Virus record (IMG/VR): IMGVR_UViG_3300020182_000020
Source of the DNA: a virus
Strand: one strand, 5' to 3'
DNA: 64,000 nt
The first letter of the stretch is position 1; each line of letters starts with the position of its first letter. Below, piece after piece: positions 15,366 to 20,343 of this stretch. The position numbers and the translations under genes were made by a program. The notes under the pieces were generated by a model that was given only the letters and a program-made list of their open reading frames with translations, ran no database searches and had not been told where the DNA came from.

Positions 15366-16256
15366 ATGTCTTTTGACACTCTTAAGCGCAACCGCGCAAA
15401 TTCAATCACGAAACTAGTTAATGCTGCTTCTGGCCAAAACGCTGGTCCAGAGAAGAAGTCCTATGTGGACGAACGTATCTGGAAGCCGACAGTTGACAAA
15501 GCCGGCAATGGCTATGCGGTATTAAGGTTTCTTCCTGCTGCCGAAGGTACTGACCTCCCGTGGGTTCGTTACTGGGATCATGGTTTCAAAGGTCCAACTG
15601 GGCAATGGTACATTGAGAAGTCTTTGACCTCTATTGGTCAGAACGATCCTGTATCAGAAGCTAACAGCAAGCTCTGGAACTCTGGTAACGAGCGAGACAA
15701 AGAGATTGTTCGTGAACGTAAGCGTCGATTGCACTATGTTGCAAATGTTCTTGTCGAGAGCGATTCTGCTAATCCTGAGACTGAAGGACAGGTAAAACTG
15801 TTTGTCTTTGGTAAGAAGATCTTTGACAAGATTATGGATGTTATGCAACCACAGTTTGCTGACGAAGATCCTGTCAACCCATTTGACTTCTGGGAAGGTG
15901 CTTCTTTCAAATTGAAGATTCGTAATGTTGAGGGATACCGAAACTACGATAAGTCTGAGTTTGCTTCTTCGAAACCTCTTTCGGACGACGATGACGTCTT
16001 AGAACAGATCTATTCGAAGCTGCATGATCTTAACGAGTATTCTGATCCAGACAACTACAAGAGCTATAACGAGCTACAAGAGCGATTGAATATGGTCCTT
16101 GGTGTTACTGCTGCTGCTGAACGAAACTTTACTTCAGTAACCGAGACAGCTGCAGCGCCAGCTCCTAAGACGGCTTCTGAACCGGAGATTACGGTGACCG
16201 CCGAAGACGAAGATGACACTATGTCATACTTTGCAAAGTTAGCTGCAGAAGATTAA
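15366..16256 (+). CDS. gp32: Single-stranded DNA-binding protein gp32
   Basis: DERIWKP, GNGYAVLRFLP, YIEKSLTSIG, FGKKIFDKI, FDFWEGA, acidic tail ending YFAKLA. Confidence 0.95.
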   Translation: MSFDTLKRNRANSITKLVNAASGQNAGPEKKSYVDERIWKPTVDKAGNGYAVLRFLPAAEGTDLPWVRYWDHGFKGPTGQWYIEKSLTSIGQNDPVSEANSKLWNSGNERDKEIVRERKRRLHYVANVLVESDSANPETEGQVKLFVFGKKIFDKIMDVMQPQFADEDPVNPFDFWEGASFKLKIRNVEGYRNYDKSEFASSKPLSDDDDVLEQIYSKLHDLNEYSDPDNYKSYNELQERLNMVLGVTAAAERNFTSVTETAAAPAPKTASEPEITVTAEDEDDTMSYFAKLAAED

Positions 16257-17602
16257 AACGTTTCTCTGCTTCGATTTTTTAACGGGTTGGGGTCCCTTAC
16301 GGGACCACTGCTTGCTGTAACGTTTGTTGTGCTGTTGTTAACATTAGTGTTATTTGACTGCGGCGCAATGTTTACATTAGCAGTTTGAGAATGCCCTTTA
16401 AAGGCATTCTTTTCCGCCTCCGTTAATTCTCCTGTTAACTCTGCTCTACGCGCTTCTGCGGCAGTTACCCTTCCTGATCGCGTAGGATCGCCATAATCGA
16501 TGACTGTCTTTGGATCATAATCATCGTCTCCTGCAGACTCTTCTGAAGAGTCTGATCCAAACCCAAGCGCTGATAACCCCTTTTTGGTTAGGTCGCCAAG
16601 ACCATTAAAAAGCTTGGACGGCAATTCAGAAAACCAATCTACGATTCCTTGGTACATTTCTTGTATTTTTATGATCGGGGCCATCATTTTGTCTGGCAAT
16701 GTAGAAAGCCAATCTACGATTCCTTGGTACATTTCTTGTATTTCTGTAACTATACCAATGTCTTCGCCGGTCGTGAAGAAATGAAAGAGGTCCGCTAAAC
16801 CTTTCGCGATTGATTTTATTTTTTCAAAAACGGTATCTATCACAGTAGAAACCATTTCTTTAGCTTCCTCGCTTTCCGGTCCCATAAACCAGTCAATCCC
16901 GTTTGCGATCATATCGGTCATCGGTTTCAGGAATTCACCAATTCCTTTAAGAAGATCTTCCCACATTTTAGCAACATCGACTTTCTCTAGATATGCTGCT
17001 GCTTCATTTGCTCCAAATTTCCGAGCCAACCAAGCAGCCAAATCTACGACGAACTGACTAGGTACTGCAATTAACCACTTAAACAGTTTCTGGATAGCAC
17101 CGCCAAGTCCCGCGACTACCTTTTCTCCAAACGTACCTTCTGTTGATTCAAAATCTTCCATAAACCCCTTAATAAGCGCAATAACTGCAGTCACAGGAAG
17201 AGCAATACGCTTTATGAAGTTCAATAGCCTTGTACCAAATAACATCATTGAAGCTTTGAACGCTATGAAGCTCGCTACAATACCATCAAAGAGAAAGCCA
17301 GCATCATCTTTATCGCCCGAATTTTTGGCACCCGACGTCTTGCCCTGTACGCCACCTTTATCTTCTGGGTCTAATCCTTTTAAACTAGCAAGGGCTTGGT
17401 TCTGCATAAACTCTTCGAAGTTATTATTGAGCATGGCGACACTATTCGCGATTACTTCTAGTATCTTTATCTGATCGCGAAGCAAAGAGCTTTGTATGCC
17501 CTTGCCTTTGGTCGCATTTCGGTCTTCAGCGCCTTCTTCGTTGATCGTCTTAAGACGATCTGTGACCTGCTGCATGTAACTAATTTCTTTTTCTTCAGCC
17601 AC
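16253..17602 (-). CDS. Probable tape measure / baseplate hub protein (gp29-like)
   Basis: Helical Trp-periodic repeats (IVDWLS/IVDWFS), hydrophobic segment; follows gp26/gp51. Confidence 0.55.
   Translation of the reverse strand: MAEEKEISYMQQVTDRLKTINEEGAEDRNATKGKGIQSSLLRDQIKILEVIANSVAMLNNNFEEFMQNQALASLKGLDPEDKGGVQGKTSGAKNSGDKDDAGFLFDGIVASFIAFKASMMLFGTRLLNFIKRIALPVTAVIALIKGFMEDFESTEGTFGEKVVAGLGGAIQKLFKWLIAVPSQFVVDLAAWLARKFGANEAAAYLEKVDVAKMWEDLLKGIGEFLKPMTDMIANGIDWFMGPESEEAKEMVSTVIDTVFEKIKSIAKGLADLFHFFTTGEDIGIVTEIQEMYQGIVDWLSTLPDKMMAPIIKIQEMYQGIVDWFSELPSKLFNGLGDLTKKGLSALGFGSDSSEESAGDDDYDPKTVIDYGDPTRSGRVTAAEARRAELTGELTEAEKNAFKGHSQTANVNIAPQSNNTNVNNSTTNVTASSGPVRDPNPLKNRSRETF
16634..16743. repeat. 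Perfect 35-bp direct repeat at 75-bp spacing (16634-16668 and 16709-16743)
   Basis: CCAATCTACGATTCCTTGGTACATTTCTTGTATTT occurs twice; encodes IQEMYQGIVDW. Confidence 0.9.
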
Positions 17603-17780
17603 TAGCGTGTTTCCTTCGTTCGTTTTCTTCTTTAATCTTATTAATTAACATATTTACGTAAACTTCCCTCTCCCAAGGCATCATATTATCTAACTCTTCA
17701 AGTGTAAACCTATCTTGGTAAATTAACTCAAAGTTAAGCTTATAATGATTTACCAGATTATCATGAGAGAGGCATATTAA
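17595..17780 (-). CDS. gp51: gp51-like baseplate hub assembly protein, without own start codon (not in ORF track)
   Basis: LICLSHDNLVNHYKLNFELIYQDRFTLEELDNMMPWEREVYVNML...; MMPWERE motif; lies in the -1 frame of gp26. Confidence 0.75.
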   Translation of the reverse strand, partial: LICLSHDNLVNHYKLNFELIYQDRFTLEELDNMMPWEREVYVNMLINKIKEENERRKHASG

Positions 17781-18481
17781 AAAAAACTATTTAGACCCTC
17801 TATCTTTTGCGAATTTGGTTTTTCGCAACCAGAACATTTAAACTTGGCAGCATATTCTAACTTTGGCATAGTTTCCATAAATTCCATAATATTTTTAAAC
17901 TGTTCCGATGTCATTTGTTCTATGAAATCTAAAATCTCTTTTTTCGAGACTTCATTCACATCAATCCTTTCTTCGCCATGATGGATTGCTTTAATACATT
18001 CTGCTGCAAGAGAGAACCCAGTCTCTGTTGAATTGATGTTTTGTAAATCATATTCTAGAAGATTAACAAAGGGCGGATAGCGCAATTCAATAGTGATTTC
18101 GTTAGTCAACTTTGCCATGTTTTTAACCTTTGGCATTTTTACTTCTAGGCTGTCAAGATTTATCGTAATCTCATTGTTTGTTTCGCAGTTTTGACAAGCC
18201 ATAAAAATCTGTGCTGTTTCTCCGGAGGACTTCGCTCGAATCTTGGTAAACATATATTCAATATCAAATGTCGTCAGATTTTCTCTATCGATGTTTTCAT
18301 CACAACACGCTTCAATCGTGTCCGCGATTGCACTCATGGTTGCTGAAGCATCTTTAGTTTCTGCAGCCATCATTAGTACTTTTTCTTCTTTCACCAAATA
18401 GGGACGAAATCTAACTCTCTTCTGAGTAGAAGGTATCTTCAATGCATATTTCGGTGAGTCGTTTAACTTAGGTAACGCCAT
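17777..18481 (-). CDS. gp26: Baseplate hub assembly chaperone gp26
   Basis: MALPKL..P.Y.L..PS, FRPYLVKEEKVLMMA, FDIEYMFTKIRAKSSGE, two CxxC, ends EGLNSFF. Confidence 0.9.
   Translation of the reverse strand: MALPKLNDSPKYALKIPSTQKRVRFRPYLVKEEKVLMMAAETKDASATMSAIADTIEACCDENIDRENLTTFDIEYMFTKIRAKSSGETAQIFMACQNCETNNEITINLDSLEVKMPKVKNMAKLTNEITIELRYPPFVNLLEYDLQNINSTETGFSLAAECIKAIHHGEERIDVNEVSKKEILDFIEQMTSEQFKNIMEFMETMPKLEYAAKFKCSGCEKPNSQKIEGLNSFF
17779..17800 (-). other. Candidate -1 frameshift site: T8 run with upstream SD-like GAGGG
   Basis: Minus strand GAGGG-TCTAAATAG-TTTTTTTT-AA; the -1 frame continues into the gp51-like sequence. Confidence 0.6.
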
Positions 18482-18501: not shown

Positions 18502-19224
18502 CTAATTTCCCAATCCAAATTTATCTAGTACGTTTGACAGAACTCCACCCAAAGGATTGTTCGGGGGCGAGAACGATTCTGCTTTCCAATCTTTATATGT
18601 AAAGCTTACAGTTATTTCTAGAACTTGGTCTGTGGCATCATCCGACAATTCTATCGCGGTAATAGAAGTCGGATAAGCATCAATCAAAGTGCATTCATAT
18701 ACAATAGCATCCGCCGTTAACTTGTTAAAATCTAATTTTCCGCTGGCAAGATTCAGAGGACCCAAAGAAGGCAATCGATTTCTAATTTCACTTGGTATTG
18801 AAGACTTTACTTCAAATAGTTGTCTGTTCAGAAAACCAAGCCCAAACGATTTTCTTAATAATGAAATGGTAATGTCTTTTGCGTAATCTCTGTAATACCC
18901 CACTTCATAGCTGTTATGGTCTACAATCTGATTCTGCCATGTATCAAAGTAATCTTTCACGTAAGGATTATTAAGCATTCGAAACGTCATTGTTATATCT
19001 TGAGAAGCAAACCCGTTCACTATATTGGCCGTGGTTAATCCGATTTGTCTAGCAGTCACATTTAATTGTCGGGCAGGCAGCTGTAGTCCTTTACACAATA
19101 GGTTTAAATCCTTTGTATTTGCCCTTGGGTCTATTGGCGGCAGTCTTACTTTGAATAGATTTCCTCTAGCGAACCCATTCCCAGCGGACACAGCACTTTT
19201 TATATCTTCAATACTGTATGACAT
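18502..19224 (-). CDS. Tail tube-family protein (gp54/gp19-like tube initiator)
   Basis: GFARGNLFKV, LLCKGLQLP, FDTWQNQI, LIDAYPTSI..IELS, VSFTYKDW. Confidence 0.7.
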   Translation of the reverse strand: MSYSIEDIKSAVSAGNGFARGNLFKVRLPPIDPRANTKDLNLLCKGLQLPARQLNVTARQIGLTTANIVNGFASQDITMTFRMLNNPYVKDYFDTWQNQIVDHNSYEVGYYRDYAKDITISLLRKSFGLGFLNRQLFEVKSSIPSEIRNRLPSLGPLNLASGKLDFNKLTADAIVYECTLIDAYPTSITAIELSDDATDQVLEITVSFTYKDWKAESFSPPNNPLGGVLSNVLDKFGLGN

Positions 19225-19851: not shown

Positions 19852-20343
19852 TCACTTTTTCTTTTTCCTTGAGTATTTGGGCATAGGTTTTATTTTCTTA
19901 AATGGTTTTGGTAAAATCCCCATAAGCCGCAGTTCTATTTCGGTCCAAATCTCGAAACTCCATTTTCGGTCTTTACAGTACTGTGTGGCGGCTTCCCATT
20001 TGTTTTGATTTTTAACGTAAGTGAATCCCTCAGTAATGTATTTTTTTGTCCTAGTCGGGCCTTTAGGTGGCAATGTTTCTTTATGCGGTTTGACTTCAAT
20101 CAGCGAAGTCTGCCCGCTTTTCCAAGTTACGACAAAGTCTGGAAAGTAACGATGAATCCTTTTGTCTGCCTCATATAAGTAAGGAATAATAATTTCTTCA
20201 CTTGACCATTGTATTATATCAGAGCTGTTGTCGAAGAATTGCATGCAATTTTTCTCCCAACCACTTCGATACACAACGTTGGTAAAATCACCTTTATATT
20301 TGCTGGTGTTTTTTACTTTGTATTTTCCTTTATAAGTCTGCAT
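19852..20343 (-). CDS. gp4: Head completion nuclease gp4
   Basis: YKGKYKVKN..KYKGD, YRSGWE, WSSEE, YFPDF, EVKP, NKWEAA. Confidence 0.9.
   Translation of the reverse strand: MQTYKGKYKVKNTSKYKGDFTNVVYRSGWEKNCMQFFDNSSDIIQWSSEEIIIPYLYEADKRIHRYFPDFVVTWKSGQTSLIEVKPHKETLPPKGPTRTKKYITEGFTYVKNQNKWEAATQYCKDRKWSFEIWTEIELRLMGILPKPFKKIKPMPKYSRKKKK

Follow-up and report, generated by a model that had tools for sequence, protein, structure and literature searches.

The gp26 gene of a marine T4-like phage, together with the reading frame that overlaps its 3′ end, was analysed in a 64,000-nucleotide (nt) stretch of IMG/VR virus record IMGVR_UViG_3300020182_000020 (this whole 64-kb stretch is hereafter the window). 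The gp26 open reading frame (ORF; minus strand, 17777..18481) encodes 234 amino acids (aa) and matches Pfam family PF12322 (T4_baseplate) over its full length (E 2.2e-60; 204.5 bits against a cut-off of 24.5; profile positions 2-218 of 219), as well as phrog_150 ('baseplate hub'), the family of T4 gp26 (E 3e-62). On the minus strand, to which all features of the junction belong, the gene ends GAG GGT CTA AAT AGT TTT TTT TAA. Within this end lies a slippery heptamer, T_TTT_TTT (17780..17786), which shows the X_XXY_YYZ pattern in the phase of the 0 frame, is part of a run of eight T's (17779-17786), and is directly adjoined by the 0-frame stop TAA (17777..17779), the position of a 'shifty stop'. 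The -1 frame is closed by a TAG immediately 5′ of the T-run (17787..17789), and a Shine-Dalgarno (SD)-like GAGGG, a possible stimulator that also encodes Glu-Gly, is found 9 nt 5′ of the heptamer (17796..17800).

Beyond the heptamer, the -1 frame stays open for 61 codons from TTA (17780-17778) to TGA (17597-17595). This extension (17595..17780) is a gp51-like C-terminal module: it hits positions 58-115 of the 121 in the profile of phrog_634 ('baseplate hub assembly catalyst', gp51) with E 2.8e-23, and there is a weaker hit to the last 45 positions of phrog_150. Its peptide starts LICLSHDNLVNHYK and later includes MMPWEREVY; the whole post-shift 61-codon peptide is LICLSHDNLVNHYKLNFELIYQDRFTLEELDNMMPWEREVYVNMLINKIKEENERRKHASG. 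The first ATG, GTG, or TTG in this frame is a pair of ATG codons at 17684-17679, which correspond to extension residues 33-34. Joined to gp26, the extension would give a 295-aa transframe product, gp26-51 (17595..18481), with the predicted junction ...GLNSFF-LICLSHD..., and this fusion is very probably made by programmed -1 ribosomal frameshifting. The observations behind this reading are the anatomy of the junction, its conservation, the coding constraint on the stretch that lacks a start codon, and a domain equivalence with T4 gp51. The end of gp26, the 61-codon extension, the absence of an early start, the overlap of its stop with the next gene, and the spacing of GAGGG were all located where the original prediction had placed them, and the two product sizes that it gave, 234 and about 295 aa, are correct for the ORF alone and with the predicted extension.

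The 8-nt T-run is the sole A/T homopolymer of at least 8 nt in the window, in which about 11 would be expected under a first-order Markov model; long homopolymers are strongly avoided in this phage, and the single exception is the frameshift site. Because TAG abuts the run in the -1 frame and TAA ends the 0 frame, the number of open -1-frame codons upstream of the heptamer being 0, a shift is confined to the eight T's alone. The ATG in TAATATG, just past the gp26 stop, was considered as a start for the extension and ruled out, as it is in the +1 frame and opens an ORF of only four codons. When contigs of other phages from the same samples were compared, islands of at least 90% identity were limited to 17763-17803 (the shift site) and 17659-17697 (the PWER motif), so that nucleotide conservation within the locus is highest in these two short islands. 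Both gp26 and the extension are single-copy, each occurring once per complete relative genome and once in the window, where tblastn found no second copy of gp26 or gp51.

Conservation and coding constraint at the junction

To compare the junction across relatives, 8 GenBank Kyanoviridae and 80 IMG/VR loci, with gp26 identities of 33-78%, were collected; clustering of relatives at 90% identity gave 48 clusters, which stand for 92 loci. No near-identical phage record was found among deposited genomes, the best gp26 identity there being ~42%. The gp51-like region was in the -1 frame relative to gp26 in every locus that contained it (88/88), with tblastn homology to the extension starting at the gp26 stop, and T_TTT_TTN was present in X_XXY_YYZ phase in 48 of 48 clusters (N = T in 27, C in 12, A in 5, and G in 4). 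Alignment of the gp26/gp51 junctions had been set beforehand as a test of the original prediction, and both the -1 phase and the in-phase heptamer were recovered throughout. Exactly six T's were counted in 21 clusters and seven or more in 27, and the 0-frame stop followed 0-1 codons past the heptamer in 47 of the 48. Background codon use is rich in T (TTT makes up 77% of Phe codons and T-ending codons 75%); alone, it would not be expected to yield the heptamer in all 48 clusters, although these are not independent. The arrangement thus exceeds chance, both as the lone A/T run of at least 8 nt in the window and by its recurrence in all relatives examined.

The stretch of the -1 frame that precedes any start codon was also informative. 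Most relatives have no start codon in this frame before approximately codon 10-21, counted from the FF pair, the positions of internal ATGs differ among them, and near-cognate codons past the gp26 stop are not conserved. The residues of the extension that were invariant in the alignment are L4, S5, H6, N16, L27, P35, W36, E37, and Y41, four of which (L4, S5, H6, and N16) come before the first ATG of the window. Entropy by codon position in the start-less stretch was 0.87/0.70/1.26, the third position being the most variable; the nearest relative (L009) differed from the window there at seven codons synonymously and at two non-synonymously; and, over 58 codons across clusters, the -1 frame contained 2 stops vs 326 and 273 in the other two frames. 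Because of this periodicity, the synonymous excess, the invariant residues, and the few stops in the -1 frame, the start-less stretch is taken to be translated. The 32 codons before the ATG ATG pair are, by these comparisons, under purifying selection, and the layout of the frames indicates that ribosomes would reach them only through a change of frame from gp26.

A miscounted homopolymer that splits a real 295-aa ORF, or a gene in decay, would also give two frames, homopolymers being error-prone and a protein with gp26 and the extension in a single frame being known in T4 gp51. Contigs from sequencing runs of three different studies, however, agree with the window at every position of this region, the eight T's included, a check of homopolymer length that had been proposed with the prediction, and the two-frame arrangement was seen in all 48 clusters, isolate genomes included, with both frames under selection; an artefact or decay is accordingly given next to no credence.

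Counterparts in T4 and parallels among tail assembly chaperones

In T4, the two domain architectures are found in two proteins. T4 gp26 (208 aa) consists of the T4_baseplate domain only, whereas in T4 gp51 (249 aa) that domain covers residues 1-201 (E 4e-52) and is followed by ~48 residues that match phrog_634, the full match to that profile running from residues 147-246 to positions 2-103. The two were also connected by BLASTP (E 2e-6, T4 gp51 against T4 gp26), and phage Merlin gave the same picture; Merlin gp51 matched the window extension weakly (E 0.053), with the IP.ER motif aligned. T4 gp51 is thus a gp26 paralogue with the extension, and T4 therefore encodes the short and the long form as two paralogous genes, on opposite strands. 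The predicted gp26-51 belongs to the same protein families and has the domain order of T4 gp51, of which it appears to be the orthologue; T4 differs, however, in having neither an overlap nor a slippery site, and its gene 26 is directly followed by gene 25. In gene 26 of T4, Merlin, and Klebsiella phage EI, all of which have a separate gene 51, the C-terminal motif G-L-K-E-F-F is kept and FF is spelled TTC TTT, which is non-slippery, so that the motif does not force a T-run, these genes serving as a natural control. The assumption that T4-like phages do without the frameshift is valid only for T4 itself and the phages closest to it, where two genes exist.

T4 gp26 and gp51 are hub assembly chaperones, and T4 virions do not contain gp51, which is homologous to the long form (PMC3004832). 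Sullivan et al. (2010) noted, without explaining it, that gp51 of cyanophages reaches "only ~20% of the length" of gp51 elsewhere, its first ~200 residues being missing (PMC3037559); the short cyanophage gp51 would be explained by the frameshift, because the missing N-terminal ~200 residues are gp26, which the shift would supply. In most GenBank records inspected, gp51 was absent or truncated. Among the Kyanoviridae records (L001-L008), S-WAM1 and S-CAM8 do not have it, and those of P-SSM7, HTVC008M, Mosig, S-CAM22, and S-T4 give it 31-45 aa, with an internal ATG taken as the start; a ribosomal-slippage join is annotated in none of these records. A full-text literature search found no report of a gp26/gp51 frameshift.

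Frameshifting between the two frames of a tail assembly chaperone is a textbook case of recoding, and the genomic setting of gp26 is the canonical one for such a G/GT shift. A tail-tube-like gene (minus strand, 18502..19224; 240 aa; phrog_45 'tail tube', E 2.8e-34) lies directly upstream of gp26 and is followed by gp26, the extension, and a tape-measure-like gene (minus strand, 16253..17602; 449 aa), which begins with GTG (17602-17600) and has weak PHROG tape measure matches (E ~1e-5); gp2-like and gp4-like genes are also present upstream. In the records of relatives, the equivalent positions are labelled putative tape measure and, for the upstream gene, baseplate tail tube initiator.

Structural comparison added a more tentative link. 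A model of gp26 (predicted local distance difference test score, pLDDT, 87) was searched with VIA-align against 48,161 PDB representative chains, for which the tool itself warns that Z values <8 can reflect a common arrangement. The best match was an uncharacterised protein (3fgx, Z 8.0), followed by the HK97 tail assembly chaperone (2ob9, Z 6.7), YqbN (3klu, Z 6.5), which is presumably a prophage tail chaperone of the XkdN type, and, in fourth place, the unrelated Tor-Lst8 complex (5fvm, Z 5.1). Each of the top three aligned 84-85 residues to residues 1-96 of the model; because the Z values are moderate, shared ancestry of the gp26 N-domain with tail assembly chaperones is only suggested. Foldseek returned no meaningful match to gp26 in PDB or AlphaFold-DB Swiss-Prot, structural matches in BFVD were limited to gp26-family proteins, from many myophage lineages, and the gp26 profile had no match among PDB sequences. 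A relaxed Pfam scan likewise found no chaperone family, PF12322 alone being recovered, and a complex prediction for the tube-like protein, the tape-measure-like protein, and the extension scored 0.00, which is not evidence either way. Two invariant Cys pairs of gp26, C96/C99 and C216/C219, are each placed on a pair of β-strands in the model, which suggests a zinc-ribbon-like metal site in the gp26 family; weak VIA-align matches to zinc-finger chains were obtained over model residues 87-234.

The closest parallel is lambda G/GT, for which the work on gpG/gpGT and on the conserved tail-chaperone frameshift (Levin, Hendrix and Casjens 1993; Xu, Hendrix and Duda 2004, 2013, 2014) is used here as summarised in PMC5009743. 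In both systems, two overlapping frames are situated between a tube-type gene and a tape-measure gene, the -1 shift lies close to where the first frame ends, the second lacks a start codon, and a short and a long product (predicted in the present case) have a common N-terminal part; the absence of gp51 from T4 virions is a further point of agreement. Tail assembly chaperones are also among the best structural matches of the modelled gp26 N-domain, at moderate Z. In contrast to lambda, gp26 does not resemble any known chaperone family in sequence; at 234 aa it is larger, and it contains two CxxC pairs. The heptamer is U_UUU_UUU with a stop behind it instead of G_GGA_AAG, and the T4 homologues function in assembling the baseplate hub of a contractile tail. 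A second parallel is P2 E/E+E′, for which a -1 shift is described that uses TTTTTTG and lacks a downstream structure (Christie et al. 2002, as cited in PMC3091744); on that secondary account, P2 shares with the present locus a myophage tail chaperone pair, the same class of heptamer, and no need for a downstream RNA structure, but gpE is 91 aa and unrelated in sequence, and the P2 baseplate is simple. The analogy with G/GT that accompanied the original prediction therefore gained from the gene order, from the composition of T4 gp51 as a gp26-like part plus extension, and, more tentatively, from the structural matches of the gp26 N-domain.

The predicted shift falls within the known tail-chaperone frameshift, of which T4 offers an instructive evolutionary variant. 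A broader proposal, which seems to us to stand at even chances, is that this is the T4 superfamily's version of a universal G/GT frameshift, that gp26 and gp51 are true structural homologues of tail assembly chaperones, and that the two genes of T4 arose from a duplication that hard-wired the frameshift product, after which the slippery site was lost (TTC TTT). A 2016 recoding review described G-T frameshifting as conserved among long-tailed phages "except T4" (PMC5009743). If the frameshift is real, the T4 superfamily would be no exception, as most of the branches seen here, i.e., marine cyanophages, pelagiphages, and Vibrio, Aeromonas, Pseudomonas, and rhizobial relatives, would use it at gp26/gp51, and only T4 and its close kin would have resolved it into two genes, which would explain the wording of that review. 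Should the homology with G/GT and the duplication in T4 both hold, hundreds of deposited T4-like genomes would mis-annotate or omit gp51.

The proposed frameshift and its rivals

Under the proposed mechanism, most ribosomes would end at the gp26 TAA and release the 234-aa short form, while a fraction would slip one base back on U_UUU_UUU (17786-17780), either by both tRNA-Phe in tandem or by the P-site tRNA-Phe with the A site paused at the neighbouring UAA. Slipped ribosomes would then read UUA AUA UGC... and 61 further codons in all, giving the 295-aa gp26-51 fusion. An adjacent stop codon may aid shifting, an idea known as the 'shifty stop', and could do so here. By analogy with lambda G/GT, P2 E/E+E′, and the genetics of T4, both forms would be assembly chaperones for the complex of baseplate hub and tape measure and not parts of the virion; the shared gp26 domain would provide a common function, and through the conserved C-terminal module (LSH...N.F...PWER..Y) the long form would gain an additional contact. 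What is inferred in this scheme is that ribosomes slip here, how efficiently they do so, and what the two forms bind. The junction peptide would be directly searchable in existing proteomes of infected cells.

Several points weigh against this account. The 295-aa product is itself a prediction from sequence; the clusters share phylogeny, so the evidence is less independent than a count of 48 of 48 would suggest; and the FF motif explains the T-run in part. No conserved downstream RNA structure was found when 60-96 nt around and after the site were folded for the window and 43 relatives against shuffled controls (z of approximately -0.1 to 0.6 for the window and a mean of -0.77 for the relatives), nor was a hairpin at 5-9 nt spacing shared among these sequences; a weak AUGAU/AUCAU pairing ~16 nt downstream follows from the codons for SHD and NHY. 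In E. coli dnaX, the -1 shift takes place on A_AAA_AAG, preceded by an SD-like element and followed by a hairpin. The locus resembles dnaX in its homopolymeric heptamer and in the SD-like GAGGG 9 nt upstream, but differs in that no downstream hairpin was found and in that the shift here would lengthen the protein, whereas in dnaX it truncates it. The suggestion that GAGGG acts as a stimulator fared unevenly: anti-SD pairing upstream of the site is indeed enriched among the relatives (mean of -5.4 kcal/mol in the 48 clusters vs -1.4 for the in-gene background), but this enrichment is inseparable from the codons of a conserved Glu/Lys-Gly motif.

A further difficulty is posed by lineages in which the extension has a start codon. 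The heptamer is present without one in Pseudomonas phage pf16, Aeromonas phage AS-sw, and the freshwater cyanophage BUCT-ZZ01, and the window belongs to this class; in Vibrio QD01, Rhizobium RHph_I1_9, Stenotrophomonas BUCT608, and Sinorhizobium phiM7, the heptamer is accompanied by an ATG that overlaps the gp26 stop in the frame of the extension, from which records annotate a protein of 54-59 aa. Because of this ATG at the junction in several lineages, a free-standing small gp51 is probably functional in some phages, and independent translation was for that reason kept as a rival: no fusion would be made, and the gp51-like peptide would arise by non-canonical re-initiation after gp26, or else as a peptide of 28-29 aa from the ATG ATG pair at 17684-17679, much as GenBank annotators call short gp51 ORFs from internal ATGs. 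For the window, however, this seems improbable. Its -1 frame has no ATG, GTG, or TTG before extension residue 33, and the near-cognates are not conserved in relatives; the 32 codons before the ATG pair, with their invariant LSH and N, are under purifying selection; the positions of internal ATGs vary among relatives; and the conservation of the heptamer would be left unexplained, since T4-type genes spell FF as TTC TTT. A complementary pattern, which counts in favour of the frameshift, was seen in Vibrio phage 207E48.1 (filed under Ackermannviridae), which has no heptamer (ACG CTT TTT CGG) and in which a gp26 homologue is followed by a small gp51-like ORF with its own ATG at the junction, TAATGATG; there, judging from the ORFs, the extension is apparently expressed only as a separate protein.

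The same two products could come from slippage of the RNA polymerase, which would add one U on the eight T's, so that a subset of mRNAs would encode gp26-51 in a single frame. Runs of approximately 8-9 A or T can support polymerase slippage in bacteria, and the window has eight T's and 27 of the 48 clusters at least seven, so that such slippage could contribute in this phage, a point that also tells against a purely ribosomal event. The same arrangement is, however, found in the 21 clusters with just six T's, too few for efficient slippage, the X_XXY_YYZ phase, which is relevant to ribosomes and not to the polymerase, is always kept, and the DNA contigs show no length heterogeneity; as the source of the fusion, transcriptional slippage is considered unlikely, to about the same degree as independent translation. 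A -1 shift on the ribosome is the best reading of the mechanism, given the conserved codon phase, the clusters with only six T's, and the precedent of P2.

Neighbouring genes

The end of the extension and the GTG of the tape-measure-like gene overlap by 8 nt (17595-17602), and AAGGA is found upstream of the GTG. Translation of the tape measure might thus be partly coupled to frameshifted ribosomes, although the upstream AAGGA also permits independent initiation. The same 8-nt overlap of the extension stop with the tape-measure start is annotated in P-SSM7. Within the tape-measure-like protein, the 11-residue sequence IQEMYQGIVDW occurs twice, 25 residues apart (16634-16666 and 16709-16741, minus strand), each copy being followed by a similar S.LP.K stretch; this looks like an internal duplication of the type seen in tape measure proteins. 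At its other end, the tape-measure-like gene (minus strand, end at 16253) converges with a gp32-like gene (plus strand, end at 16256), the stop codons of the two overlapping by 4 nt (16253-16256), and there is therefore no space for a terminator between them. Upstream of gp26, the gp4-like head completion protein (phrog_218; 19852-20343, minus strand) also matches the Pfam TnsA-like endonuclease N-terminal domain (E 9e-20).

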